A stretch of DNA of 64,000 nt from Escherichia phage EJP2. The stretch lies in the sequence record OQ411014.1; one strand, written 5' to 3'. Under the pieces are notes generated by a model. The model worked only from the letters and a program-made list of their open reading frames with translations. It made no database searches and had not been told where the DNA came from. Made by a program: the position numbers and the translations under genes. This document shows positions 23,750 to 58,922 of the stretch, piece after piece (the first letter of the stretch is position 1; the number at the start of each line of letters is the position of its first letter).

Positions 23750-24130
23750 ATGATGATGATACCGCCAACTGATCGTACTGACTCCCAGATGGAAGTACTT
23801 TCTAAAATACGGTCAGTACAAGTGGAAAAATCTGACTTAACCGACCGTTTAGTACTGAAGTCTATCTTTGAAAATTACAGATCCGGTTCGGGTATGAGAT
23901 TGAGTAAATTTGGTAAAGAGATGTGCATTGAGCATGAACTCTATGAGTTTGCTAAGTTTAATATCCCTAAAGGAACTAAGAAATCAGTACTGTTTATAAC
24001 GCTTGACAGATTATGCAAAGAGCCGTATTATGTAGAAGGTTTCGATGTGTTTCTGTCGGATGCACAAGTAATAACAGAACTGACATTTTGTTGTGATGAT
24101 TTTGAAAAATTGATTAAACTTTATTTGTGA
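23750..24130 (+). CDS. hypothetical protein
   Basis: 126-aa ORF. No recognisable motifs. Confidence 0.5.
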   Translation: MMMIPPTDRTDSQMEVLSKIRSVQVEKSDLTDRLVLKSIFENYRSGSGMRLSKFGKEMCIEHELYEFAKFNIPKGTKKSVLFITLDRLCKEPYYVEGFDVFLSDAQVITELTFCCDDFEKLIKLYL

Positions 24131-24154
24131 CAAACCAATAAAGTGTGATATAAT
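24125..24154 (+). promoter_or_regulatory. early promoter (TTGTGA -35, TGn TATAAT)
   Basis: TTGTGA 24125-24130, TG 24146-24147, TATAAT 24149-24154. Confidence 0.45.
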
Positions 24155-25840: not shown

Positions 25841-27253
25841 ATGAGTAAATTCAATAATTTGTCTACTAAACTTCCCGATTCAGTTTTGCAAGAATGTAAT
25901 GAACGTATGGTACTAGCTCGTACTTCACTGATGCTCTCTAAACCATTCTTTGGTGTTTTGGCATCTCGTCTTCGCCCAGTACCGAATGATACTTGGTGTC
26001 GTACGATGGCAGTAGATGGCAAACACTTGTACTATAACGTAGAATTCGTTATGGGTTTACAAGACCAAACTAAACGTGCACAATACGAAGAAGCACTAAA
26101 AGAATCAATCGACGATATCAGTACTGAACAAATCAATGACGTACTGAACGGTCTATCTGACCAGAACCTGATTGCTGTACTGTGTCATGAAATTCTTCAC
26201 TGTGCTTATGACCACTTCTTGCGTCGTGGTATGCGTGACCCACAACTGTTCAACAAAGCTGCTGACTATGCAATCAACCAGATTCTAGTTCGTGAAAACA
26301 TTGGTAAGATTCAGTCTTCTTGGTTGTACGACAAGAAATATGACGGAATGACCGCTGAAGAAATCTATGTTCTTCTTGAAGAAGAGAAGAAGAAAGAAGA
26401 GCAAGAAAACGGTGGTGGTGATGGCGACGGTGATGGTTCCGATGACCAAGATGGCGATGGTGACGGAAACAGCAACGGTGGTGGTAAGAAGAAAGGTAAG
26501 AAAGGTAAAGGCGGCACAATTGACCAGCATGACGTACCACAAGAAGGTGATGGTGAAGTAAGTGATGCCAAGCGTCGTGAATATATGGAAGATTTCAAAA
26601 CTGCAATGATGAACGCAGCACGTGCTGGTGGTACTCCAGCAGAAATCGAACGTATGATTGACTCCTTCACTAAACCAAAAATCGACTGGCGTTCTAAACT
26701 ACAACGTACTATGCGTTCTTGCATGAAGTCCGATGTAATTTTCTCTAACCCAAGTCGTCGTTCTTGGAGTACGGGCTTCGGTCACAGTGGTTCTTTCTTT
26801 GGTTCTCCTATCTTCCCAGGACTGAAACCAGATGAAGATATTGATATTGCAATTGCACTTGATGCGTCAGGTTCTATCAGTAATGATATGTTGCGTGACT
26901 TCATCAGTGAAGTGATGGGAATCACCAAACAGTTCAAACAGTTCAAGATTCGTATTATGACTTTTGATACTAAGGTTTATACTGTTCGTGATTATAAAAC
27001 TGGTGAAGAGAAGAAGATTCTAGAATATCCAGTTCATGGAGGTGGTGGTACTGATTTCCAAGCAGTTTGGGATCATATGCGTGATGACAACTACCGTCCA
27101 AAACAACTCGTAATGTTCACTGATGGTGAGCCGTGGGATTCCTGGGGTGACGAAAACTATTGTAAGACTCTTTTCGTAATCCACTCCAACCCTGAAAAGA
27201 TTGCACCATTCGGTGAAACCGTACACTACGAGTACGAAGCGAAGCAACACTAA
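25841..27253 (+). CDS. VWA-domain protein with N-terminal HExxH metallopeptidase-like motif
   Basis: HEILHCAYDH motif; MIDAS LDASGSIS and MFTDGEP in the C-terminal VWA domain; Gly/Asp low-complexity linker. Partner of the upstream ATPase. Confidence 0.75.
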   Translation: MSKFNNLSTKLPDSVLQECNERMVLARTSLMLSKPFFGVLASRLRPVPNDTWCRTMAVDGKHLYYNVEFVMGLQDQTKRAQYEEALKESIDDISTEQINDVLNGLSDQNLIAVLCHEILHCAYDHFLRRGMRDPQLFNKAADYAINQILVRENIGKIQSSWLYDKKYDGMTAEEIYVLLEEEKKKEEQENGGGDGDGDGSDDQDGDGDGNSNGGGKKKGKKGKGGTIDQHDVPQEGDGEVSDAKRREYMEDFKTAMMNAARAGGTPAEIERMIDSFTKPKIDWRSKLQRTMRSCMKSDVIFSNPSRRSWSTGFGHSGSFFGSPIFPGLKPDEDIDIAIALDASGSISNDMLRDFISEVMGITKQFKQFKIRIMTFDTKVYTVRDYKTGEEKKILEYPVHGGGGTDFQAVWDHMRDDNYRPKQLVMFTDGEPWDSWGDENYCKTLFVIHSNPEKIAPFGETVHYEYEAKQH

Positions 27254-27261
27254 TATAAATA

Positions 27262-27298
27262 ATGCGTAAGTTCAGGATGTTCTTACGCATTTTATTTT
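27262..27298 (+). terminator. rho-independent terminator
   Basis: ATGCGTAAG ... CTTACGCAT stem followed by TTTTATTTT. Confidence 0.55.
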
Positions 27299-27326
27299 GA
27301 GATATCATAAGAAATTGTGATATAAT
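27297..27326 (+). promoter_or_regulatory. early promoter (TTGAGA -35, TGn TATAAT)
   Basis: TTGAGA 27297-27302, TG 27318-27319, TATAAT 27321-27326. Confidence 0.5.
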
Positions 27327-44938: not shown

Positions 44939-46435
44939 TTATTTCTTATGAACACGGTAAACAATGTTCGGTTTAACTGCATCTTCCAACGGTACTCTGT
45001 TTGGACTATTAACAAAATCAGTTTTAGCTTTATCTGCACCAACCCACGGCTGACGACCGCCATAATCAAATATAGCCCATGATTTCTTATCGTCTGAGTA
45101 CTCCCAAAGCGTAACTGGGGTGTAATCAGTACGGTAAAAGTACTCACCATCAACTGGATTGCTTGGGAATTCAGTACCTTCACCTACAGTTCCTCTAGCT
45201 GGTGGAATCTTAGGTCTAGAGTCCGCAGAAAGAGTGATGTCGGCAGCAATACTACCTGAAGTGAATGGTACGTTGCTATGTTCATCAGGTGGAATCACCC
45301 ATGTAACACCATCATCCAGTACTTGATATAATTGTGGTTCAGCGTATAATACATAGAAGTCACCAGCGTCATTAGGTACACTTTCACCGGACTTAACGTA
45401 CGGTAAATCACAGTTCAACCATTTCTTGACATCTTTATCGTACTGATATAAAGTATATCCACTGACATCTGCTTCTTGCTCTTTAAAAAAGAAATCTCCG
45501 TCACTCGGTCTGCGAGGGAATGTGGTTCCGTACTTAACTTGGACTTCATCCCAGCTAGAATTCTCGAACTCCATCAGTACTGGATATGTTTTCTTAATGT
45601 AGAACATATTTGCTGAAGGTTTTTCAGGGAAATCATATCCACTTAAGATAACTCTTGACAGTTCCCATATATCTGATCTATCATTATATATGTGCTCATT
45701 AGTCCAGTGCATGTATGGCACTTCATCATCGGCTTGGATAATGATTTTGTTCATAATATCCATTTCGTTGTTGTAGTTACTGTTTTCACTACCACCATTA
45801 TTACCACTTGAGTTACCATTTCCGTTATTCGGATCATCTGGGTCATCTGGGAAGTTGTTATTGTCTAGGATTCCAGAATATTCAGGACTATCGGTTAGTG
45901 GTTTAACACGAAGTTTGAAAATATGGTGTTGCCATGTGACGGAGTAACCTTCGGATGTTCTAAACGCATCTTGAACGACATAGAAACGGTTCAAACCTGA
46001 ATCTTTTCCTATAACGTCAAAATCGCGTAAGTTAGGAAGTTCGATGACATCGCCTGGAATAATTTTTCTTCCCACGCGTTGCATCATTGTGTTATAATGG
46101 ATTGTAATGTCCATAGTGTTAAAGTTGAAGAAAATCCCTGGCATTTTTAAGTCAGGAGTTGCTTCTTGAATTTGGTACACTGCACTAAGTGTTATAGCTT
46201 CTAAGTTATATTCACGTTGTGCTGATTCACCGAAGATAATGTCACCGATACTAGAAATATCTAGTTGACCATCTCCGGTTTGTAGTGTACCATCATCATT
46301 AGTTGCTAATTGTTTTGGACCAACATAAGCGTACAGCCACATATCAACACCACCGATATTGTACTGTTCGGCAATGTTGCGGTCGATGAAACTATAATCA
46401 TTAGTTCGACCTTTTTTCCACATTTTGTATGCCAT
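44939..46435 (-). CDS. virion structural protein
   Basis: ATG at 46435 with TGGAGA RBS; the ORF track starts at 46492. First gene of the leftward operon. Confidence 0.5.
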   Translation of the reverse strand: MAYKMWKKGRTNDYSFIDRNIAEQYNIGGVDMWLYAYVGPKQLATNDDGTLQTGDGQLDISSIGDIIFGESAQREYNLEAITLSAVYQIQEATPDLKMPGIFFNFNTMDITIHYNTMMQRVGRKIIPGDVIELPNLRDFDVIGKDSGLNRFYVVQDAFRTSEGYSVTWQHHIFKLRVKPLTDSPEYSGILDNNNFPDDPDDPNNGNGNSSGNNGGSENSNYNNEMDIMNKIIIQADDEVPYMHWTNEHIYNDRSDIWELSRVILSGYDFPEKPSANMFYIKKTYPVLMEFENSSWDEVQVKYGTTFPRRPSDGDFFFKEQEADVSGYTLYQYDKDVKKWLNCDLPYVKSGESVPNDAGDFYVLYAEPQLYQVLDDGVTWVIPPDEHSNVPFTSGSIAADITLSADSRPKIPPARGTVGEGTEFPSNPVDGEYFYRTDYTPVTLWEYSDDKKSWAIFDYGGRQPWVGADKAKTDFVNSPNRVPLEDAVKPNIVYRVHKK

Positions 46436-46477
46436 TTTGAATCTCCAAAAAGAAATCGTATAAATGTATTTATTTTT

Positions 46478-46507
46478 TTGAGACAAATGCAAAAGATGTG
46501 ATATAAT
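46478..46507 (+). promoter_or_regulatory. early promoter (TTGAGA -35, TGn TATAAT)
   Basis: TTGAGA 46478-46483, TG 46499-46500, TATAAT 46502-46507. Upstream of the ClpA-like gene. Confidence 0.5.
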
Positions 46508-46554
46508 AGATTATGAAGCACATAAAACTACTTTTTTTTTAGGAGAGAATTATA

Positions 46555-48840
46555 ATGAGTCAAACTTTCATTCAAATCTTCACCGATACTGAAAACTTTG
46601 CACAGAGTCTTGGTCATCGTTATATGTCTATCGACCATCTTTCAGTAACCGTGCTACAAATTCCTAGCATCATTGAAGCGTTGAATGCAATGTCTCTCGA
46701 TGCGGAACAAATCCAAGAACGTGTTCACCAGTACTTGAAAAGTGCTAACATTCCAGAGATTCCACAGAGTACGATGGAAGCTATTGGTGAAGATCGTGCG
46801 GCTATGAGCATTCAAATGTCTCGTATCATGGCTGAACTAAGCAAGAAAGCTGTACTGGAACAATTGAAGACTGATGATTATACTATTGCTCCGTACTTTG
46901 TACTTTTTGAATGTTTGTCCTTCCCTAATACTGCAATTGAAGCAGTACTGGAAGAATTAGGAACAACTCGTACTGAAGTGGCTCGTTCTCTTCAGAAACA
47001 TGTTGAACAAGTTGAACCATCAGTAGAACTAACTAAAACTTTCCAAGAACCGACTAAAGAGGGTAAACGAGTGGCACAACAACCACAGTCCAAGTCTAAG
47101 GGTATTGAAGATTACACCACTAACCTGACAGAAAAAGCTCGTAATGGCAATCTTGACCCGATGATTGGTCGTACCAAGGAACTCCAGAACCTAATCGAGA
47201 TTGTTTCTCGTAAGAATAAAAAGAATGCGTGTCTGACTGGTGAACCTGGTGTTGGTAAAACTCAAATCATTGATGGTTTGGCTCAAGCAATCGCTGATGG
47301 GAATGTTCCAGAGCATTTACAAGGTATTGAGATTCTTTCTCTGAACATGGGTGCGTTTACTGCGGGTACTAAGTATCGTGGTGAGTTCGAAGAACGTGTT
47401 GATGATTTCTTGAAAGAATTGAAAACTCGTGATAACGTAATCGTATTCATTGACGAACTACATACTATCATGGGTGCAGGTTCCAACAGTTCTGGTTCTA
47501 TGGATATGAGTAATCTTATCAAACCAGCACTATCAAGTGGTGAAATCCGTGTTATCGGTGCAACTACTTACGAAGAATATCGTAAACACATTGAGAAAGA
47601 TGGTGCACTAGCACGTCGCTTCATGAAAGTTGATATTGTTGAACCTTCTTTCAGTGAAACTCGTGAAATTGTACTCGGCGTTACCAGTACTTATGAGAAG
47701 TTCCATGAAGTTTCTTTCAGTGAAGCAGCAATTGAAGCAGTACTGAACCTGTCTAACAAGTTCATGAAAAACAAGCGTTTCCCTGACAAAGCACTAGATC
47801 TTCTTGATGCAGCAGCGGCAATGAAACGTACTCGTGGTGAAGACGATAATATCGTTCAAGAATCACACATCCAAGAAGTTGTGGCACGCATTGCTAACCT
47901 GGATATTTCTGTGGTAGCATGTAACGAAAGCGAACGCATGTCTAACCTACCAAATGCACTACGTTCTCGTGTATTCGGTCAAGATGATGCAGTTGAAAAA
48001 CTGGTTGATAACGTAATGGTTGCTCGTGCAGGTCTACGTGATAGTGCGTCAGTACAGGGTGCGTTCATTTTCCAAGGGCCGTCCGGTACTGGTAAAACTG
48101 AAATCGCTAAAGCACTTGCTGATGCAATGGGTTCTGAACTAATTCGTTTCGATATGTCAGAGTTTGCTCAAGAGCATACTGTATCCAAACTAATCGGTTC
48201 CCCTCCAGGTTATGTTGGTCACGAATCCGGCAACGGTCTACTGTTAGACAAAGTAGAACAATTCCCGAACTGTGTCCTGCTTCTGGATGAAATTGAAAAG
48301 GCTCACCCTAACATTCTACTAACCTTTCTACAGGTTCTAGATGAAGGTCGTCTAACTGGCTCTCAAGGTAAAACAGTATTCTTCAATAACGTAACTGTTA
48401 TCATGACTACTAACCTAGGTGCTAAACAAGCAGAAGTTCGTGCAATCGGTGGTTCCGGTGGCGACGATGGTATGGACAAAGCACTAAAAGCGTTCCTCCG
48501 TCCAGAGTTTCTAAACCGTATCGACAGTGTTGTGAAATTCAAAGAACTATCTGCTGAGGCAATTGATTCTGTAATCACCAAGTTCATGGCTTCTCTGGAA
48601 GAAACCGTTGCACCTAAAGGTGTTACCGTGAAACTAACTACCGAAGCACGTGCATGGTTGGCTAAGAATGGTGTTCAGGTTGGTATGGGTGCACGTCCAA
48701 TGAAACGTACCATCGAAAAACACATTCGTGTCCCACTAGCTAAAGAAATGCTTTGTGGTTCTCTACAAAATGGTGGTTCAATTACGTTTGACGTGATTGA
48801 TGGAACTCTAGGTGTAAAATCCAAACGTTCTAAAAAATAA
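46555..48840 (+). CDS. clpA: ClpA-like two-ring AAA+ unfoldase
   Basis: Duplicated Clp N-domain. D1 GEPGVGKT ... FIDELHTIMGAG and D2 GPSGTGKTE ... LLLDEIEKAHP. No ClpB middle domain. Colinear with ClpA over about 760 aa. Confidence 0.85.
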   Translation: MSQTFIQIFTDTENFAQSLGHRYMSIDHLSVTVLQIPSIIEALNAMSLDAEQIQERVHQYLKSANIPEIPQSTMEAIGEDRAAMSIQMSRIMAELSKKAVLEQLKTDDYTIAPYFVLFECLSFPNTAIEAVLEELGTTRTEVARSLQKHVEQVEPSVELTKTFQEPTKEGKRVAQQPQSKSKGIEDYTTNLTEKARNGNLDPMIGRTKELQNLIEIVSRKNKKNACLTGEPGVGKTQIIDGLAQAIADGNVPEHLQGIEILSLNMGAFTAGTKYRGEFEERVDDFLKELKTRDNVIVFIDELHTIMGAGSNSSGSMDMSNLIKPALSSGEIRVIGATTYEEYRKHIEKDGALARRFMKVDIVEPSFSETREIVLGVTSTYEKFHEVSFSEAAIEAVLNLSNKFMKNKRFPDKALDLLDAAAAMKRTRGEDDNIVQESHIQEVVARIANLDISVVACNESERMSNLPNALRSRVFGQDDAVEKLVDNVMVARAGLRDSASVQGAFIFQGPSGTGKTEIAKALADAMGSELIRFDMSEFAQEHTVSKLIGSPPGYVGHESGNGLLLDKVEQFPNCVLLLDEIEKAHPNILLTFLQVLDEGRLTGSQGKTVFFNNVTVIMTTNLGAKQAEVRAIGGSGGDDGMDKALKAFLRPEFLNRIDSVVKFKELSAEAIDSVITKFMASLEETVAPKGVTVKLTTEARAWLAKNGVQVGMGARPMKRTIEKHIRVPLAKEMLCGSLQNGGSITFDVIDGTLGVKSKRSKK

Positions 48841-48844
48841 GAAA

Positions 48845-48878
48845 ATAAAAAGGAGCCTTTCGGCTCCTTTTTTTTATT
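48845..48878. terminator. bidirectional terminator between ClpA-like gene and giant gene
   Basis: A-run, GGAGCC-TTTC-GGCTCC, T8 run. Confidence 0.6.
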
Positions 48879-51800
48879 TGATTAATCCAATAAGAATTAC
48901 AGGTGCAATATCCAAACTATCAGAATAAGTACTCAATGGGATTGGTTCATAACCATCACCGTATACTGCAATTTCATTAGTGTTACCTAAATTCAATCCA
49001 GTACTGGTATACGTTACATCCTTTTCGTAATAATTCTGAACAGTACCGTTATAAGCTCGAACAACGAAGTTGTTTTTGCGAACAAGCATTTGTTCTGCAT
49101 TAGATAGGATAATATCGTCAGGTACAACACCAGGCATTGTAGCGATACCATTTTCATAGGTCATGGTGCTTGCCATCTTCGGCTGACTTACGTGAGTGAA
49201 GCTGTCAAACATTGACTTATAAACAACAGTAACAGTACTGTTAGTGTTAATATACACACCATCAACTAGTGGTTTACTATAGATCCAAGAACCATTGTTA
49301 GCAGTAGGGTTAATTTCAGCTACATCGTATTCAAATACTGAAATTTCCAACGCGTCGGTCATTTTAGTACGAACCAATTCACTTAGTACACCTTTACCGT
49401 ACACTGGTAGGTAATATCCATTATCAACCACAGTTCCATCTTCTAGTGTTTGTGTCTCATTAGTACTGTACCATACATCATAGTCATTGGTAGTTAGTTC
49501 TGGTTCATAATTACCACCAATTAAGGAAGTGTCATAGAACACATCATAATCTAGAGCATCGACTCTGTAAGAACGGTTATTAGTATAACGAGTAATTCCA
49601 CCAGCACTAAACTCTGGGTCATTGAAAGATGTAACTCTAACAATGTTGATACTAGTTGGTTTGTTCTGGTTGTAAAGTGATTCATCAGTACTGTTATAAG
49701 TACTAGTGAAAGTTAATCCACCAATAGTTACAGTATTACCAGATACCGAAGTTACTTTAAACAACTTAGGACGATTAGCATCTTTAATTGTTGCTACACT
49801 CAATACAGTTTTCCAAGAACCATCGTTAATAGCGACTGCGTAATCTGAATTGTCTGGGACAAATACAGCTACCGTTTCGCCAACAACGAAATCATTATCA
49901 CCGTCAAGTTCAACAACACCACTTACTGAAGTTACGTTCTTAATACGATATGAATATTGAATTTCATTCTTTTCCAAAATGCTTCTATTCATGTATTCAA
50001 GAGCAACATCATAACGTGGAATACTTACAAGGGCTTCTGAGCGATTATATGGGTTTTGTACGATATAACCTTCAATATTAAAGTTACCTTGATCACGTAA
50101 TTGTGTCTGTACTGAAGTATCAAATCCATATCCATCAACTGTGAATCTTAGCTGTGCCATATCACGTTTAGATGGGTTAAGTTCTGAAATGTCTACAAAT
50201 ACAGGATCGTTAGTACTGTTAGCGACACCAACAACGGAGTTAATAATAGTTTTAGTTTGTGATTCTAGAGCTAAGTTATCGAATGCGTTTTTATCATCAA
50301 AGAATACTTCTTTATTCAAGCCTGACATGATTTGTAAGAAATCACTATATAGTGGGTTCTTATCATCTTCTGGAACGTCATCAAGTGATGGTTGGCTTAG
50401 GCGAACCATATCCCCATCAGTGATATACACTTCTTCCATATATTCTTCTATGCCAACATTCGAAGGAATGCTATAATCTTTTCCTGGAGTAGTTTCACTC
50501 ATTAGGAAAACATATTTCCTAGGCATCAACACTACTGCATAAGCATCAACATCAAGATTCTCTAATACTTTCTCTGCTGCACTATACGGGTCAGTTTCAT
50601 CAGGATTATAAGTCCCTCTAAGTGCTGATAGAACGTGTACTGCATCAGTATAGAAACGATTAGATTCTGGATTATCATCAGTTTCAGGGATTACATATTT
50701 CCATGTATATAAACCGTATTCATATTCCATGTACTCTAGAATCTCAATGTGAGAGAATCCAGGGTTTGCTTCCTTAACTTGATCATAAATCAAATCATAC
50801 ATTGGTTTGCTGTAAGAGATATAACCATAGTTTTCACCATTGCTTGCACTAAATCCAAACGGCAACCTTGTGCTTGGGTTATCACTCAGTACTAGACCTT
50901 TAAATGGACAACCTACTTCAGAACCAATAGTTTCATCAGATTTGGAAGTTGTTAGCTTCAAACGGTTTGAAAGCGTGTTGTACTGAACATAGTTGCGTAC
51001 TTCACTAACCGATTCAGATTTCTCTTCTGCTTCTGCAATTACACGATTAAGTGTAGCTGTAAATTCATCAGATGCTTCAACATCATTAATTAGTGTTGCA
51101 TACATTTGGTCTAAACCATATTTCAAACCACTACTAATATTCATGTTCGGATAGTACTGCGTAATACCGTTCATGATTAATGTTTCCAACTCAGCATTAT
51201 TAATTTCAGGGAAAGTATATGCATAACGCTGGAGCATGTAGTGGGAGCCTTTTACAAGGAAGTCACCAGTATTAGATTGGTATTTCTTGTTCACGTTTTC
51301 TAGTGTTGTTATATCTGCCATATCGGAAGATGGTTTGCACTGGAAGTTGTCAAAGTCAAGAATAACATCAATCTCTTGGAAACGGCGGTTTGGTAGTACG
51401 AAGTTATTTGGTAGTGAGCCTACGATTTCCCACTTCTGACTTACATCGTTGAATTGAGCATATTCGTAATCCCAAATATCTTTTTGTGTTTTAACCCAAG
51501 CACCATCAACATAGATATAACCGTTAGGATCTAAATCGTTTAATAGACCGTTGATTTCATCTTCATCAGATGTCTTCTGCTCTATTTGTGAACGGATTTT
51601 AGTTCTGTATGGTTTCACTTCTTCAAAGTACTGTACGATTTCATTTATTAAATTACCATCAGTAGTTGATCTTTGTTGTAGTGATTGGTCTAGACCAATA
51701 ATATAAATGTAAGAGGTTTTGAATACCCAGTCCACGACTTTCTGCTCAGTGTGTACGTACTTAACCATGTCAAATACTACAGTACTTTGTACAGAGTTGA

Positions 51801-54800
51801 ATGAACCTTTGAGTAGTGCTAATGCTGCACGAACGTTTTTCTCATTATTCGTTAATGCACCATCGCTGTTGTATTGTGAGTAGTTGTTATAAAGAACATT
51901 GTTCAATTGTACAGTGCTCTTCTCACGACCAACTGCTACCCATTGAACTTGACCACGTGATTCAGTTTTTTCATATAATGTCCAGACACCATCGGCATCG
52001 GTAATACGAATCAAATCACCAATCTGGTAGTTTTTAGTGTTAGCAATTTGAATGCTTGTTTCTTCGGTATATTCTGATTCTTCATCAAAACCAACACTAT
52101 ACCAATCAGCATAATCCCAGTAGGTTGTCATATCTAATGAAGTACCAAGCTGATCAATATAGTCAGTTTGCTTAATCATAGTATGTTGACCTTCACCACG
52201 ACTCTCTAGAGTGATAGTTACCGCAGTACCAGAAGTACTTGGGCTATTCATCAAGTGAATGTAACCGTTGTCGTCGTAATGCACAAAGTACACACTAGTA
52301 CGGTTTAGTGGTGCTGGTAATGTACCATTAGTATTAACCAGTACTGCGTCATTCTCTACAAATTTGTTTTCATTTGTGGTGATAACCAATTCGTTGTTAT
52401 AAGTTAGTACTTTAAATCCAACTTCGTTCGGGTTCACAGCGTCAGTCTTCTTAAAGAAGATATCATCCATTACTACAGTGTCAGTTGTCATGTTAATATG
52501 CTTGTACACATTGTTTGCTGAATCAACAAACGTCCTACGAGCTTCTATAACGTCCATAAACCATGTTTTGTTTGCACCTAGACCCAAGTCAGTACTTGGA
52601 TAAGATAACTCAACCACGTTGCCGTTTAGGAGGGTTTCTTGAGACTCCAAAGAGTTCCATAGAGAATTCCAAATAGCTGGGTTGAAGTTGTATTCTTCAC
52701 CTTCTTTACAAAGTTGATACTGTTCATGTTTAATAACATCATCATTATTTTCTTTGTAAGAAACAGTCAATATACTCTTATCATCGTTAATGTCGTGCTG
52801 CATATTAGATAGAATAAAAGAATTCTCATCTACTGGGGAGAACCAAGGAACTCCGAGTACTGAAGGATCAGCAATAATGCGAGCAATCTCATTACAAGAT
52901 TTGGTACGATGCTTAACATGTGGAGTATAGATTGTATCTTTAACCCAGAAGTAATACATTGGCACATAAGTGTTAGTACTAGCATCATATTCAACAAAAT
53001 AAGAATAGTTTTCAGTAACTGCTGTACCGGATGGTAGGTAAGTGGTCTGGCCTTTATTTTGTTTTTGTTGTTCAGTGCAATACTGATCCCAGTTATATGG
53101 TTCTACTGGCGATTTAACCCATTCGTACACATCAATACTACCATGTGGAAGGATTTTACCCCAATTATAACGCTTATATTCTAGAGTCTTATTTACATCG
53201 ACGTTCCCATTAGCATCAAGGATTGGACGAGTATAATCCATGAAGAATGCAGAAGAAGTATCCCACCAAACTTCACCAACTTTATCAGAACCCCAAGCTA
53301 GTAATGTTTCACCATCACTATTGTAGGTTGCTGGGTCACGAGTAGAGGTATATGAAACGTTTGACATTGCCACACCAGGGATAATACCATTGATTGGGTC
53401 ATATGTGTTAATATACATCTCAACAACGTTAGTCATGGAGTTGTAGGTACTTGGGCGGTCGAACAACGAACTGTTAGGTGCTAAGTACTCATATTTTTTC
53501 TGAACGTATGCATCTTTCGCTGCTTTAGTACTGAAACGTGGAACGTATTTGTACATTACAGGTTCTGCACCACTGAAATCAAAATCTACAGTACTGTCGA
53601 ATGCAACAACTATAGTATTTGCAGTAACACCATAGAATTGTGTTTCTTCACGTAGGAAATCAGGCATATAACCGGACTCATCAACGAAGAAGTAAGTATC
53701 ACCATTACTTAGTGTAGATGAAGAACTTAATTCTAGTGTTACTTTCTGTGCTGCGTATTGGTCATCAGTAATAATTGGAGTAATTTTCTTCAAAGTGATA
53801 TTGGTTTTAACAATATCATAGATATTCCAGTTATCATTAGAATCCTGAAGAACCCATACAGACGATGGTAGTGTATTGTAATCGGAAGTATACTTAGAAC
53901 GGTCTTCATAAGCAGTTTGTAGGTCTAGAGTAGTGAATGACACTTCATCTAGAGTTACAGGGCCGATATTTGGCAACTGAATGTTGTCAGATGCACCTTT
54001 ACGCATTGGGAAAGAGAACAAACCATGTGGACGAGTAATCCAACGTGGGTCTACACCTGTTTTACCAAAATAAACGATGTTATTTGCAGTACTGTCCACA
54101 GTTGCATTCTGGTCGAATGTAACCAATTGTGGTTGTTGAGCAAATTCGTTGTTAATTAGTTGGAACTGTAGGTTCTTTTTGCCATATACGTTGCCATATT
54201 CACCGATTTTGAAAGCCCACTCTTGTAGTGCTTTGTAACCTTCGGTATTATAGGTTTTTGATACACGTAGAACACGTTCGAGTACTTGATTAGTACCTTT
54301 GTCACGGATGAAGCCTTTATAGAAATCAACGCGGGCTGGTTCTGATGTGATCATTTCGTTTAAGTAACTTCTGGACTGGTATCCAATTAAATGATTCGCT
54401 AGGGAACGCAATTGAACATCAGATACTGGATTTTCAGTGTCATAATAGTGTCTAAAGTCATCTACTAGTTTTTCAAAGTCAGGTAGTGTGCCAGTTTCGA
54501 GGATAATAAAGCCAGGTGCTTCCAAACGACCATTCCATGAGCCAGTTACATAACCGTACATACGAATCAATTCTTGAATTGAACCATAAGTTGGAATATA
54601 GATGTTATCACCAAAAATAGTTTTATCATCAAACACGATAGCATGTTCATAAGCGATTAAGCTCAAACGAATAAGAGCAATACGCTTGTTGTATTCTTCT
54701 AAACTACGAACAGTGATGATGTTACCGATACGTGCAGTTTCAATTTCATACGGACGAATACCTGTATTATTATCATCTAGTAGAGTCCATAGACCACCAC

Positions 54801-57800
54801 TATATTGTGCAACTGATTCAACAGAACCAAAAGACGCACCGAATTTAACACTTTTAGTACTTGGAGAACAAGAAATATATTCACCACGAGCTAGAGCAGT
54901 CTGACTCCAGTTCAAATAATCCTTCGCAATTTGATTCCAGTTTAGAGTGTTGCCGTTCTCGTCAGTTTCTTCGAAAATAAACCCAACACGTTCCAAATAT
55001 TCACCATAAGCACACAAGAAAGTGTAAACTTCTTGGAAAGAATTCAGTACTGTACCGTATTCAATACTTTGAACTTTATCAGTGTACTCATTGTAATGAA
55101 CTACTGTACGATTACCTTCACGAATAGTAACACGCTTACCATTACGGTTAGGAGTTAAGTATTTGAAGGATGCACCAACTAGATCATAACCAGTAATCTG
55201 ATATCCAGTGCCGTTCCATGTGATATCAACAGCACTCATTGATTCTTCACGGATGGAAGAGCTACGAACTAGACCGATATGTTGGTTTTCTTGAGAAATT
55301 AGACCGAATGTATCAGAATAAAAACTCAATTGGTCTTCTTTACTGAATCCACCAAGTTTATGACCCACATTAATATGTGAACTACGTAAAACGTCACCGT
55401 ACTTAGTAGTAATATCCATTTGTTTGTACTGTAGGTGATCAGTTATGAACATTTGGTATCCTAGGATACGGCTATTGTTCTCATTGTTCACTAGTGTAGT
55501 ACTGTTTAGGTTCAAACGTTGGTTGGTTTCACCAAATAGGAACTGTTCTTTACCACGATAAACTGTTTTAAGAGTACTACCACGAGTATCATAGAAATAG
55601 TTTGCAAACTGTGCTGGTTTAGCACGATATAGTAGTAGAGCTTCATCATATGGGAACATTGCAGTGTTGCGGTAAGTGAATTCAATATCACCCATGTCAC
55701 CATAAGACCACGGTTCTGCACGATGATCAAGGGAACCAGCCACTAAACCTAGAACTTCTGGAGCAATCAGTTCAAATGTGCGAATTTCTTCACCATCTGC
55801 TGTGAAATTACCAGTACCTTTAATAACGAATGGCTGTTTACCAAAACGTTTGTATTTTGCATAAGTTCCTTTGTTCTTACCATATAGAATTGTACCAGTA
55901 CTAGCGTCACCTTTAATACTACCAACATCCCATAGACCACTTGGTACTAATTGGTTGTTTTCATCAATAACTTCAGCTTCATACACGTATACAACTTCAG
56001 TTGGGTCTTCACCAATACGAATTTTGGTTGGTTCATATTCTTGGTTCCACCAAGATGGGCGTTGAGCAAAACCTAACATTTCCCACGGGTGGGTTGCTGG
56101 GCGATATGTACCGAACATGTCACTATAAATTGCTCTCCATGAGCCACGTGCTGGAATATCGGTAACAACGCCATCAACAACATAAGTTGTTCCTTTGTAG
56201 TTCCAAGTTAACCAGTTATTTGCATCATAATCATGTGTACTGTTATCAATACCGTTAGTTGCGATGAAGTTAGTGTAACCACGTAGTAGAAGTGTTTGCT
56301 TCTCGTCACGAGTATAGTCAGTTTCAGTAAAATAAGGAGTCGGGAATAGATCACTCTGAACAAGTTCAGGTACATAATCAATATCTTTGAAATCATTATC
56401 AATACTGTTGAAAATACGGTTTTCTAGTTCGTAAATCACATCATCCATACGACCTACACCATTCAGTACTTTATACGCCTTGGTAATTGTACCAGTATGG
56501 CTTACGTTATAACAACCTAGGTCACGACCAGCATACATATAAGTCGCTTTCTGTGGAGCGTACGCTTTTAGAATACCAATAAACTGTGGAGTCGGTGGAA
56601 TGAAGGCACGAATGTTAGAACTGGAACTACCCATCGCATCAATGAAGAATGGGAAAGTATTATTCTTACCAACGTTAATATTATTAAGAATTGCGTCAAC
56701 AATATTAGATGCACTGTTGGAAGTGAATGCAGATGGATCTTCATTGTACATATTAACCATTTGAGTATTGAATTTGTTCATGAAACGGAAGTATTCAGAT
56801 TGCATAAATTCAATTGCAGCAAATAGGTCAATATTTTCATTCGCTGTGTTAATCATTAGTGGAAGCATAGATGCTTCGTTCTGGATAATCTTAGTACCGA
56901 CAGAGTTATCAACTAGACCTTTAGCAAGACGTTCTTCGTAGTCGTTAAAATCATTTACTGTACCAGTAGTGATGTTACGTTGAATAATTTCTTGGAAATG
57001 TGGTGTATATAGACTTTGATCAATATAAGTGATAAAATCATTATACGGGTTGTTCTGTAGGTTGATTGGAATTTCATAAGAACCCAAGTTAGTATCTGGT
57101 GTTTGTACAGGACTGTAAGTTCTGATTTCAACAATGCTATCATCGGTTAGTTTGATAGAACTATCTAGAGTTATAGATTCAACAAGACCATTTTTATCCA
57201 ATTTAGTACTGAACTTTGTGGTTTCTTCTGTACCAACACGCACATAAAGTACATCTGTGCTTGATGATAGGTTGACACGTTGAGCTAGTTCAAATGTGTG
57301 GTTAAAAAGTTCAGATGGAACGTAGTCATTACCAGCTTCACGATGCCAGTCCATAAAAGTACTGTTATCTGCTTTGTAATATTTGAATGTTGCATCAATA
57401 TCCATTACATAAGCGTACATATTTTCAATTGGATTTTGGAAATTATTCATCTCTTGTACAGTACTGAATACATTGTACATAGAGGTTTTGGTCATAGCAG
57501 GAACTTGACGAACATACTGTTTGGTAAATTCATCGCTACGATCCCAGTCTGATTTTAGATTTACTGAACCGTCAGAACCAATTACGTTATAGTAATACAA
57601 ACCAGAAATTTCAGTAGTTGCTCCAACTTTATCATAATCATAACGAGTACTCTGAATGAAGTTCTCGAAAACATAATAGTTGTAAGAGTTCAATTCAACG
57701 TTAGTGTTATAGATTTTATTGTAGTTGTAGTCAAAGTTAACTTTAAGGCCAAATAGTGGGGAACCTTTAAAAGAACTACTTGGGTAAATTTGAGGATCGT

Positions 57801-58887
57801 TTAGTTTAGTCCCGTTGCGATCATACAATTGGAACAATGGGGTACTGTTAATACCTGATTTAACTTGTGTACGAATCCATGCTGAACCATTCCAGTACAT
57901 AGAAGTGTTTTCATAAACTTGACCAGATTTAATTAGAACAACGTCACCACGCAAAGGTTCACCCGTTGGGCGTAGCTCAGATTCTTCATCTTCATCAAGA
58001 GCAAGACCATATACACGAGTGCCAGCTTCGGTTTGTTTAATGTAAACTTTATAGATTCTGTTATTTTCACCGCTGTTACCGATACTAGTGAATAGAATAC
58101 GGTCACCAGCTTTAAGAATAAAACCATCAACACGAATTTCATCAGAAACTGATTTCTGTACAATATCTTCTGGTTTGATGGAGTCTGATAGGTACGTGAC
58201 TACACCACGGAAAGTAGTTCCGTAATTCATTAGTTCGATGTTTTTGTTATATTCAATGATTGGTGCTTGAGCATGAGTGAAGCGTTCATCTTGAGTCATG
58301 TCATCAGTTAGTACTGTGCCGTCTGGTAATTCTTGACCTACAGTAAACCAATAGTTTTGTAGTGACCATGTGTTACCGTTATCAGCACCACGTTCCATAA
58401 CGATATAATCCGGTGCAATACCAAATTCGTTATTATTGTCCCAAACATAAGAACTGTAGTTCATCATTTTATTTGGGTTGATTGGTGGAGTCCATGAATA
58501 AAACTTACCATCAAATAGGCGTGACTGGTTATCAGTTAAGGAACCATAATGGGACATATATCCTACTAGGTCTTCATAGAACTGCATAGAGCGAACGCTT
58601 GTGTCGGTATTACGAGACACATAAACTGGTGATAGTTGGTAGTCTTGGCGTTGTTGAGAACTTTCTTTGATGAAAATCTTTCCAGCCGCTGACGGAGTAC
58701 CACGGTCACCTATATACCCGTCAACAATTTCTTGTTCGGCAGGGTTGAACCATTGCTGGATTACATCATCACAAAAAGTTTGGATCTGTTCTAGACCTTG
58801 CATCCACTCAGGCAATCTTTTAATGAATAGCTTTTTTTGTACAGCATCTGCCGCTAGGGTTGGCTGGAACTTAAATTCATTCGACAT
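48874..58887 (-). CDS. giant virion protein (about 3337 aa), probable baseplate/fiber network component
   Basis: Single uninterrupted ORF. ATG at 58887 with GGAGAA RBS. TATAAATA late-type box upstream. Adjacent to baseplate genes. Confidence 0.65.
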   Translation of the reverse strand: MSNEFKFQPTLAADAVQKKLFIKRLPEWMQGLEQIQTFCDDVIQQWFNPAEQEIVDGYIGDRGTPSAAGKIFIKESSQQRQDYQLSPVYVSRNTDTSVRSMQFYEDLVGYMSHYGSLTDNQSRLFDGKFYSWTPPINPNKMMNYSSYVWDNNNEFGIAPDYIVMERGADNGNTWSLQNYWFTVGQELPDGTVLTDDMTQDERFTHAQAPIIEYNKNIELMNYGTTFRGVVTYLSDSIKPEDIVQKSVSDEIRVDGFILKAGDRILFTSIGNSGENNRIYKVYIKQTEAGTRVYGLALDEDEESELRPTGEPLRGDVVLIKSGQVYENTSMYWNGSAWIRTQVKSGINSTPLFQLYDRNGTKLNDPQIYPSSSFKGSPLFGLKVNFDYNYNKIYNTNVELNSYNYYVFENFIQSTRYDYDKVGATTEISGLYYYNVIGSDGSVNLKSDWDRSDEFTKQYVRQVPAMTKTSMYNVFSTVQEMNNFQNPIENMYAYVMDIDATFKYYKADNSTFMDWHREAGNDYVPSELFNHTFELAQRVNLSSSTDVLYVRVGTEETTKFSTKLDKNGLVESITLDSSIKLTDDSIVEIRTYSPVQTPDTNLGSYEIPINLQNNPYNDFITYIDQSLYTPHFQEIIQRNITTGTVNDFNDYEERLAKGLVDNSVGTKIIQNEASMLPLMINTANENIDLFAAIEFMQSEYFRFMNKFNTQMVNMYNEDPSAFTSNSASNIVDAILNNINVGKNNTFPFFIDAMGSSSSNIRAFIPPTPQFIGILKAYAPQKATYMYAGRDLGCYNVSHTGTITKAYKVLNGVGRMDDVIYELENRIFNSIDNDFKDIDYVPELVQSDLFPTPYFTETDYTRDEKQTLLLRGYTNFIATNGIDNSTHDYDANNWLTWNYKGTTYVVDGVVTDIPARGSWRAIYSDMFGTYRPATHPWEMLGFAQRPSWWNQEYEPTKIRIGEDPTEVVYVYEAEVIDENNQLVPSGLWDVGSIKGDASTGTILYGKNKGTYAKYKRFGKQPFVIKGTGNFTADGEEIRTFELIAPEVLGLVAGSLDHRAEPWSYGDMGDIEFTYRNTAMFPYDEALLLYRAKPAQFANYFYDTRGSTLKTVYRGKEQFLFGETNQRLNLNSTTLVNNENNSRILGYQMFITDHLQYKQMDITTKYGDVLRSSHINVGHKLGGFSKEDQLSFYSDTFGLISQENQHIGLVRSSSIREESMSAVDITWNGTGYQITGYDLVGASFKYLTPNRNGKRVTIREGNRTVVHYNEYTDKVQSIEYGTVLNSFQEVYTFLCAYGEYLERVGFIFEETDENGNTLNWNQIAKDYLNWSQTALARGEYISCSPSTKSVKFGASFGSVESVAQYSGGLWTLLDDNNTGIRPYEIETARIGNIITVRSLEEYNKRIALIRLSLIAYEHAIVFDDKTIFGDNIYIPTYGSIQELIRMYGYVTGSWNGRLEAPGFIILETGTLPDFEKLVDDFRHYYDTENPVSDVQLRSLANHLIGYQSRSYLNEMITSEPARVDFYKGFIRDKGTNQVLERVLRVSKTYNTEGYKALQEWAFKIGEYGNVYGKKNLQFQLINNEFAQQPQLVTFDQNATVDSTANNIVYFGKTGVDPRWITRPHGLFSFPMRKGASDNIQLPNIGPVTLDEVSFTTLDLQTAYEDRSKYTSDYNTLPSSVWVLQDSNDNWNIYDIVKTNITLKKITPIITDDQYAAQKVTLELSSSSTLSNGDTYFFVDESGYMPDFLREETQFYGVTANTIVVAFDSTVDFDFSGAEPVMYKYVPRFSTKAAKDAYVQKKYEYLAPNSSLFDRPSTYNSMTNVVEMYINTYDPINGIIPGVAMSNVSYTSTRDPATYNSDGETLLAWGSDKVGEVWWDTSSAFFMDYTRPILDANGNVDVNKTLEYKRYNWGKILPHGSIDVYEWVKSPVEPYNWDQYCTEQQKQNKGQTTYLPSGTAVTENYSYFVEYDASTNTYVPMYYFWVKDTIYTPHVKHRTKSCNEIARIIADPSVLGVPWFSPVDENSFILSNMQHDINDDKSILTVSYKENNDDVIKHEQYQLCKEGEEYNFNPAIWNSLWNSLESQETLLNGNVVELSYPSTDLGLGANKTWFMDVIEARRTFVDSANNVYKHINMTTDTVVMDDIFFKKTDAVNPNEVGFKVLTYNNELVITTNENKFVENDAVLVNTNGTLPAPLNRTSVYFVHYDDNGYIHLMNSPSTSGTAVTITLESRGEGQHTMIKQTDYIDQLGTSLDMTTYWDYADWYSVGFDEESEYTEETSIQIANTKNYQIGDLIRITDADGVWTLYEKTESRGQVQWVAVGREKSTVQLNNVLYNNYSQYNSDGALTNNEKNVRAALALLKGSFNSVQSTVVFDMVKYVHTEQKVVDWVFKTSYIYIIGLDQSLQQRSTTDGNLINEIVQYFEEVKPYRTKIRSQIEQKTSDEDEINGLLNDLDPNGYIYVDGAWVKTQKDIWDYEYAQFNDVSQKWEIVGSLPNNFVLPNRRFQEIDVILDFDNFQCKPSSDMADITTLENVNKKYQSNTGDFLVKGSHYMLQRYAYTFPEINNAELETLIMNGITQYYPNMNISSGLKYGLDQMYATLINDVEASDEFTATLNRVIAEAEEKSESVSEVRNYVQYNTLSNRLKLTTSKSDETIGSEVGCPFKGLVLSDNPSTRLPFGFSASNGENYGYISYSKPMYDLIYDQVKEANPGFSHIEILEYMEYEYGLYTWKYVIPETDDNPESNRFYTDAVHVLSALRGTYNPDETDPYSAAEKVLENLDVDAYAVVLMPRKYVFLMSETTPGKDYSIPSNVGIEEYMEEVYITDGDMVRLSQPSLDDVPEDDKNPLYSDFLQIMSGLNKEVFFDDKNAFDNLALESQTKTIINSVVGVANSTNDPVFVDISELNPSKRDMAQLRFTVDGYGFDTSVQTQLRDQGNFNIEGYIVQNPYNRSEALVSIPRYDVALEYMNRSILEKNEIQYSYRIKNVTSVSGVVELDGDNDFVVGETVAVFVPDNSDYAVAINDGSWKTVLSVATIKDANRPKLFKVTSVSGNTVTIGGLTFTSTYNSTDESLYNQNKPTSINIVRVTSFNDPEFSAGGITRYTNNRSYRVDALDYDVFYDTSLIGGNYEPELTTNDYDVWYSTNETQTLEDGTVVDNGYYLPVYGKGVLSELVRTKMTDALEISVFEYDVAEINPTANNGSWIYSKPLVDGVYINTNSTVTVVYKSMFDSFTHVSQPKMASTMTYENGIATMPGVVPDDIILSNAEQMLVRKNNFVVRAYNGTVQNYYEKDVTYTSTGLNLGNTNEIAVYGDGYEPIPLSTYSDSLDIAPVILIGLIK

Positions 58888-58922
58888 TTTATTCTCCATA
58901 AAATTCATTTCTTCATTTGTTT

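Follow-up and report, generated by a model that had tools for sequence, protein, structure and literature searches.

ClpA-like proteins of the Rak2-like jumbo phages form a known and widely annotated family (about 70 genomes), and their conservation across most of these phages has already been published (PMC6102473, PMC7824862), together with speculation on roles as a translocase or in assembly (PMC7824862). In the E. coli ClpAP protease, residues I617, G618, L619 and I620 of ClpA enter a hydrophobic pocket of ClpP composed of L23, L48, F49, A52, Y60, Y62, F82, I90, M92, F112, L114 and L189, with R192 and E26 supplying polar contacts (bioRxiv 10.1101/820209). Small changes at this interface have large consequences, since I268L, F270L and V274A in ClpX, and R192K in ClpP, severely impair binding (PMC7112951). 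The present analysis concerns a clpA-like gene in a 64,000-nucleotide stretch of Escherichia phage EJP2 (OQ411014.1), hereafter the window. The gene call in itself is ordinary, and its value lies in the full ClpA, ClpP and ClpS-like set with a drifted interface to which the gene appears to belong.

The window belongs to a Rak2-like jumbo phage whose closest relative is Erwinia phage Hallingskeid, with 76.8% nucleotide identity (the best in the GenBank phage set) and 79% amino acid identity of the clpA product. The reading that we would put first, with about even confidence, is that this ClpA supplies the ATPase to a ClpA/ClpP/ClpS-like protease that the phage encodes and that acts in the infected cell. 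Its natural partner is more likely to be a phage ClpP than the host ClpP, because about 70 Rak2-like genomes, including that of Hallingskeid, encode both a ClpP and a ClpS-domain protein. According to this model, clpA would be transcribed from a sigma-70-like, non-late class of promoter inside the late structural module, and the hexamer formed by its product would use the KYR and GYVG pore loops to thread substrates. Substrates would possibly be delivered via the divergent N-domain and the ClpS-like protein, and would then be handed to the phage ClpP across a docking interface whose two sides have both departed from their cellular form. The gene and the parts of its product are the following:

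46541..46545, + strand: ribosome-binding site AGGAG, 9 nt 5' of the ATG (reading of the sequence)
46555..48840, + strand: clpA-like gene, 761 aa, ATG start (open reading frame (ORF) listing)
46555..47013, + strand: N-domain, aa 1-153, all-helical, the most variable region (Pfam Clp_N, AlphaFold2 (AF2) model, column entropy)
47110..47844, + strand: D1 AAA+ module, aa ~186-430 (Pfam AAA and AAA_lid_9)
47926..48537, + strand: D2 AAA+ module, aa ~458-661 (Pfam AAA_2, 165.6 bits)
48445..48456, + strand: docking loop tip I631-G632-G633-S634, equivalent to E. coli ClpA I617-G618-L619-I620 (alignment to 1ksf)
48547..48786, + strand: D2-small C-terminal domain, aa 665-744 (Pfam ClpB_D2-small, 71.5 bits)

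The ribosome-binding site is invariant among all five genera aligned over this region (alignment A1), and the G+C content of clpA, about 39%, is like that of the flanking DNA. An earlier note on this DNA had described the product as colinear with bacterial ClpA, with a double N-domain, D1 and D2. Colinearity was borne out, as the best NCBIfam model is TIGR02639 (ClpA), matched by aa 2-745 against profile positions 2-732 of 734, and the best solved-structure match, E. coli ClpA 1ksf (E=1.1e-171), aligns as a single colinear stretch, aa 18-745 against 19-733. Alignments of ClpB, ClpC and Hsp104 to the phage protein are broken into two pieces, and the ClpB model TIGR03346 likewise matches in two stretches that leave the M-domain region unmatched; the phage protein, 761 aa long, therefore has no middle domain. 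Membership of the ClpB/Hsp104 disaggregases was rejected on this coiled-coil M-domain, considering the gap in TIGR03346. The length of the docking loop was dropped as a discriminator between ClpA and ClpB because both E. coli proteins presumably have about 29 residues in this region, and only the tip residues are informative. The ClpA equivalog cut-offs are missed (749.6 bits against 993.15 for TIGR02639, 622.2 against 1350 for NF008263), and at the level of phage families the protein belongs to PHROG 4871 (960.8 bits, aa 2-759 against profile positions 9-759 of 764).

Both AAA+ modules are intact, with Pfam recognizing AAA (D1), AAA_lid_9, AAA_2 (D2) and ClpB_D2-small. D1 holds a Walker A motif GEPGVGKT (229), the pore loop KYRG (273) and a Walker B motif IVFIDELH (296); the corresponding D2 motifs are GPSGTGKT (508), GYVG (552) and LLLDEIEKA (575), followed by the sensor-2 GARPM at 712, and the ARRF motif is also conserved. 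The double N-domain fared less clearly, since Pfam Clp_N finds the first repeat only (aa 14-61, 23.4 bits), while the TIGR02639 alignment begins at aa 2 and the AF2 model places nine helices within aa 5-153, followed by a disordered linker at 161-180. This model, built with 52 homologues, has a mean pLDDT of 81 and contains two Rossmann-type modules; loop 628-635 is disordered (pLDDT <50), with helices on both sides. Foldseek matches to the model were ClpA, ClpC and ClpB chains, of which ClpA was the closest by sequence (45-46% over D1-D2). Within the phage clade, mean column entropy reaches 1.82 bits in the N-domain compared to 0.61 in D2. The protein thus apparently represents a full-length, active ClpA-type double-ring AAA+ unfoldase.

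Strain variation points in the same direction. A variant carrying three amino acid changes (P0001) is found on six metagenomic contigs, and its comparison with the window clpA gives 29 synonymous and 3 non-synonymous differences, a dN/dS of about 0.03, which indicates that clpA is functional and under strong purifying selection. The three changes are G633A, E668Q and A700E, and the first of them (codon 633, window 48451-48453) falls exactly at position 3 of the ClpP-docking tripeptide. Near-identical contigs of this kind come from the samples SRR10875135, SRR30782167, SRR7532897, ERZ27235397 and ERZ27235398.

In regard to the partners, 69 phage records carry, at >=60% identity, a ClpP homologue of the type of 121Q gp464 (about 36% identity to the ClpP of E. 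coli), and 71 carry a 177-aa ClpS-domain protein. These numbers nearly coincide, host genus by host genus, with the 70 phage records that hold a ClpA of 60-80% identity. Hallingskeid carries all three genes: that of ClpA lies at 222-224 kb, that of ClpP at 318 kb and that of the ClpS-like protein at 142 kb. On this map the partner genes lie 80-95 kb from clpA, and therefore both would fall well outside the window; ClpP and ClpS are presumably encoded in the rest of the genome of this phage.

The phage ClpPs have the makings of active peptidases, with the Ser97-His122-Asp171 triad intact in 81 of 81 phage-clade sequences and the axial N-terminal loop motif conserved in nine aligned phage and E. 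coli ClpP sequences. Of the residues lining the ATPase-docking pocket, R192 is largely kept (R in 66/81, K in 11/81). Position 114 is Gly in 60 and Thr in 18 of the 81, as opposed to Leu in 37 of 38 cellular ClpPs. In place of F82 the residue is mostly polar or small (N, S, Q, C, G), F49 gives way to W or Y, and residue 189 is Tyr in 12/12 sequences of the Hallingskeid clade. Directly after pocket residue 189, the Rak2-like ClpPs have a conserved C-terminal extension of about 25 aa (consensus ...NE.G..LVKRR.G.EEWV; L007 10067-10762 and homologues), which starts right past the C-terminal strand forming part of the pocket and is found neither in the PA5oct nor in the E. coli ClpP.

A role of the phage ClpP as head protease was rejected, since RaK2 has a separate prohead protease of the T4 gp21 type. 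A second 'ClpP-like' protein (121Q gp473, L002 10000-10608; Hallingskeid CDS0568, L007 5348-5968) is an unlikely partner, as it has no aligned catalytic Asp and scores 22 bits to Pfam CLP_protease; with its signal-peptide-like hydrophobic N-terminus and its Ser and His kept, it may be an exported serine protease. Near the ClpP genes lies also 121Q gp475 (L002 10936-11532), annotated as 'ClpYQ-like protease' and without a Pfam match at E<=0.01, for which no homologue turned up in the 64-kb window.

Against the Pfam ClpS model, which has its cut-off at 23 bits, the ClpS-like proteins score 24.7 and 41.8 bits and so pass. They differ from E. coli ClpS at D35/D36 and H66, which we take to be its N-degron pocket residues. 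The ClpS-domain protein is clade-wide (Hallingskeid CDS0342, L032 1501-2037; GAP32_314, L031 1321-1854), its N-terminus is about 70 residues longer than that of E. coli ClpS, and its gene adjoins an IF3-like gene.

On the ATPase side, the consensus for ClpP docking, reportedly described by Kim et al. in 2001, is a tripeptide [LIV]-G-[FL] located where the helix-loop-helix of D2 has its tip. The earlier note had proposed an alignment check for such an IGF/L loop. The helix-loop-helix is indeed present, with the tip codons atc ggt ggt tcc, but the tripeptide fails the consensus, reading IGG-S and not IGL-I, and the only hydrophobic side chain left is that of position 1. All 13 cellular homologues retrieved have IGF. 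Among 60 non-redundant members of the phage clade, from which the residue counts were taken, position 1 is hydrophobic throughout (I30, L15, M13, V2) and position 2 is Gly in 50 (G50, N5, S4, A1). Position 3, corresponding to aa 633, varies widely (M26, G8, A7, V6, F6, L3, I3, H1), its entropy of 2.47 bits being at the 98th percentile of D2, where the mean is 0.61. The clade pattern can be written as [ILMV]-[GNSA]-[MGAVFLIH]-S/T/G, and individual lineages have tips of their own: IGM in 121Q, LGL in fEgEco12, MNM/MSM in 7t3 and Munch, IGV in RaK2, LGM in CBB and GAP32, VGF in XaC1 and IGF in PA5oct.

Compared in this way, both faces of the ATPase-peptidase interface seem to have diverged from a cellular consensus that is otherwise strongly conserved, and we infer that ClpA and ClpP of the phage pair dock physically with each other. 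As far as literature searches show, such a two-sided divergence of the docking interface is undescribed.

Several observations weigh against a phage-encoded protease. The earlier note had pointed to ClpP or ClpS homologues in the genome as a check; these are present in about 70 Rak2-like genomes including Hallingskeid, but no ClpP, ClpS or HslV-like gene was found in the 64-kb window, where phage queries gave nothing at E<=1 and E. coli queries chance-level matches only (E>=0.6). A scan of viral contigs for an exact 53-mer, meant to locate the rest of this genome, gave no match. The metagenomic contigs with the near-identical ClpA (P0001) are at most 40 kb long and stop short of ClpP, and ClpPs 88-90% identical to that of Hallingskeid (seven looked up) come from samples not overlapping those that carry this clpA. 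The loop is also a difficulty. In the sub-clade of the window itself (the window and P0001-P0010, 70-100% identity), the tip is IGG, IGA or LGG in 11/11 sequences, so position 3 is always Gly or Ala there, and it is polymorphic for G/A between near-identical strains. Relaxed constraint, and with it a loss of docking, would explain the variability of position 3 equally well. Furthermore, covariation of loop and pocket was sought in eight paired genomes, and no clear residue-by-residue pattern appeared, the sole hint being Tyr at ClpP 189 in the clade related to IGG/IGA. Finally, a literature search on the ClpA family of Rak2-like phages turned up no experimental work.

The surroundings of clpA bear on the alternatives to be weighed, and comprise the following features:

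46479..46507, + strand: promoter-like element TGAGACA-N11-TGTGATATAAT, sigma-70-like with extended -10 (consensus scan, alignment A1)
1226-1254, 24126-24154, 27298-27326 and 46479-46507, + strand: four promoter-class copies with identical extended -10
48847..48872, no strand assigned: bidirectional intrinsic terminator shared by clpA and the 3344-aa gene convergent with it, lying between the two, with an 11-bp stem, a 4-nt loop and T-runs on either strand
48874-58908, - strand: 3344-aa virion structural protein, phrog_10938 (4810 bits), convergent with clpA

The promoter-like site can also be read as TTGAGA-18-TATAAT with a TG extension (46478..46507), matching the consensus in 11 of 12 positions; position 46478 is the -35 end of the site, and the start codon follows at 46555. 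The promoter block is conserved 5' of clpA in five genera (the -10 block in Hallingskeid, 121Q, CBB and XaC1), and its CBB counterpart, Porf_235, is among the 18 published 'divergent RpoD-like' promoters of that phage (TGAAACG...TGnTATAAT). Exact copies of the 11-mer TGTGATATAAT occur four times on the + strand of the window, each with TGAGAyA or TGTGACA at an equal upstream distance, while fewer than 0.1 copies of an 11-mer of such composition are estimated to occur by chance. The genes 3' of the four copies are an uncharacterized 209-aa ORF, an ATPase gene (phrog_1297), an ORF matching phrog_15894 and clpA, all of them non-structural and scattered across the structural region. The 470-aa ORF at 25841-27253 (+), also within the structural region, where it follows the ATPase gene and precedes the next copy of the promoter, matches an HNH endonuclease PHROG (phrog_1314).

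The clpA promoter accordingly reads as a member of a phage-specific sigma-70-like class with extended -10, distinct from the late class. The promoter and terminator of its own that the earlier note had given to clpA both stand, making the gene its own transcription unit, but 'early-type' has to give way to this non-late class. Early or middle expression is plausible because the CBB promoters of this class mostly precede genes of DNA synthesis, with one of them preceding a gp55-like late sigma factor. A transcriptome preprint on PA5oct reports stronger late expression of the gp284-376 cluster, which is too imprecise and was not used here.

Just upstream, a T4-late-promoter-like ATAAATA motif (window ~46466-46474; the minus strand reads AATAAATAC) faces the divergent structural gene, the real start of which is probably near 46435 and not at the TTG codon of position 46492. 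All five aligned genera have the corresponding GTATTTA block unchanged, and ATAAATA is the late-promoter consensus proposed for CBB.

Gene order around clpA is common to the window, Hallingskeid, CBB, 121Q and XaC1. A NUDIX gene, a gp15-like tail completion gene and a structural gene on the minus strand are followed by clpA on the plus strand and by a structural gene for a protein of about 3300 aa, again on the minus strand. The clpA gene is thus divergent from the gp15-like/structural operon and convergent with the giant structural gene. Amino acid identity of ClpA to further relatives is 52-69% (121Q/PBECO4-type, RaK2/K64-1, Munch/7t3, GAP32/CBB, XaC1), and 38-39% to PA5oct and Atu_ph07.

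This setting is part of what speaks for a stand-alone unfoldase or chaperone, with no ClpP docking in this lineage and with a function in remodelling or assembly, for example of the tail and baseplate proteins of very great size whose genes lie alongside. We consider such a role rather doubtful. Its advantage is that clpA always lies between structural genes, beside a virion protein of about 3300 aa, that it adjoins a DnaJ-like gene in PA5oct and Atu_ph07, and that translocase or assembly roles have been proposed before (PMC7824862). The IGG-S tip also has no hydrophobics to enter the ClpP pocket, when already conservative changes abolish the docking of ClpX (PMC7112951), and few sites of D2 vary as much as its position 3, with G and A alternating between near-identical strains. 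On the other hand, the hydrophobic position 1 (60/60) and the Gly at position 2 (50/60) look like residual constraint on the loop, and the same genomes, that of the IGG-bearing Hallingskeid among them, retain both a ClpP with intact triad and the ClpS-domain protein. Moreover, clpA is on the opposite strand and has a promoter class unlike that of its structural neighbours. Whether the linkage with the giant protein extends to PA5oct was examined, and the argument was dropped, as no homology is detectable between the giant proteins of the two phages (E=0.37); the linkage does not, therefore, reach deep.

It has also been suggested, in the earlier note, that the phage ATPase could turn the proteolysis by host ClpP against host or defence proteins, for which it would dock on this ClpP. 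The architecture of ClpA, including the helix-loop-helix bearing the docking loop, is compatible with such hijacking, as are the tripeptides ending in L or F in some relatives (LGL of the fEgEco12 type, IGF in PA5oct, VGF in XaC1) and the probable expression from a non-late promoter of the host RNA polymerase type. However, efficient docking of this ClpA on unmodified host ClpP is unlikely, because IGG-S replaces the IGL-I contacts of E. coli ClpAP and F270L or I268L already make ClpX severely defective in binding. In addition, a phage ClpP of its own, as found in about 70 relatives, makes borrowing needless. Considering all this, the suggestion is weakened, and we regard hijacking of the host ClpP as improbable.

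With respect to the place of action, the ClpA homologue of CBB (CBB_235) is absent among the 55 proteins identified in the virion proteome of this phage, while its neighbours were detected with 12 (CBB_234) and 21 peptides (CBB_236, the homologue of the 3344-aa structural protein of the window). In PA5oct, ClpA has no ESI-MS/MS (electrospray ionization tandem mass spectrometry) flag, while its neighbours and the PA5oct ClpP are flagged. The best-supported reading, and one that forms part of the phage-encoded protease preferred here, is that ClpA is not a virion component and works in the infected cell. That it is instead packaged, to be injected or to perform quality control inside the particle, the latter a role also raised by the earlier note, is very improbable, for although clpA is embedded in the structural module and ClpP is found at trace level in CBB virions (CBB_104, a single peptide) and flagged in PA5oct, ClpA itself was undetected in CBB and unflagged in PA5oct with its neighbours seen, and its promoter is of a non-late class.

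Within the phage-encoded protease reading, a further step can be taken tentatively, as a possibility to which we give distinctly less credence. Rak2-like phages may run an orthogonal Clp protease that is insulated from the host, ClpA pairing with no ClpP but that of the phage, by a re-engineered loop ([ILM]-G-[M/G/A]-S in place of IG[FL]-hydrophobic), a de-hydrophobised pocket (L114G/T, F82 to N/S/Q) and a C-terminal cap, with substrates, plausibly host defence or housekeeping proteins, chosen by a ClpS-domain adaptor whose N-degron pocket is altered. The IGG/IGA sub-clade, with Tyr at ClpP 189, would be the extreme form of such re-engineering. If the ClpA/ClpP pair is functional and insulated from the host, it would be a natural orthogonal AAA+ protease of use in engineered protein degradation, and a route to identifying the host proteins destroyed by a jumbo phage. 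A loop that is simply in decay would instead make the family an example of a ClpA becoming a ClpP-independent chaperone.

In comparison with known systems, the phage protein shares the class-I Hsp100 fold with ClpB/Hsp104 and ClpC, and its D1 and D2 taken separately give comparable scores with them, but these proteins carry a coiled-coil middle domain that is missing from the phage protein. Closer is the E. coli ClpA (1ksf, 1r6b, 6w1z; TIGR02639), which has the same order of N-domain, D1, D2 and D2-small without a middle domain; the two proteins are 38% identical along the full chain and 45-46% across D1-D2 (Foldseek), and Walker A/B, the KYR and GYVG pore loops, ARRF and sensor-2 are identical or conservatively changed. 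It differs from E. coli ClpA by the tip, IGG-S and not IGL-I, by the strongly diverged N-domain and by its scores under both equivalog cut-offs. PA5oct and Atu_ph07 likewise encode ClpA, ClpP and ClpS, yet their ClpA is just about 38-39% identical and, unlike in the window, its gene stands beside a DnaJ-like gene; in PA5oct the docking tripeptide is the canonical IGF and the ClpP is without the C-terminal extension. The closest likeness is to the ClpAs of other Rak2-like phages (121Q gp581, CBB_235, RaK2_00069, GAP32, Hallingskeid), which are full-length and 61-79% identical, with the same neighbours, strands, promoter block and length. From most of them the protein is set apart by a lineage-specific tip, the IGG, IGA or LGG that this phage shares with Hallingskeid.

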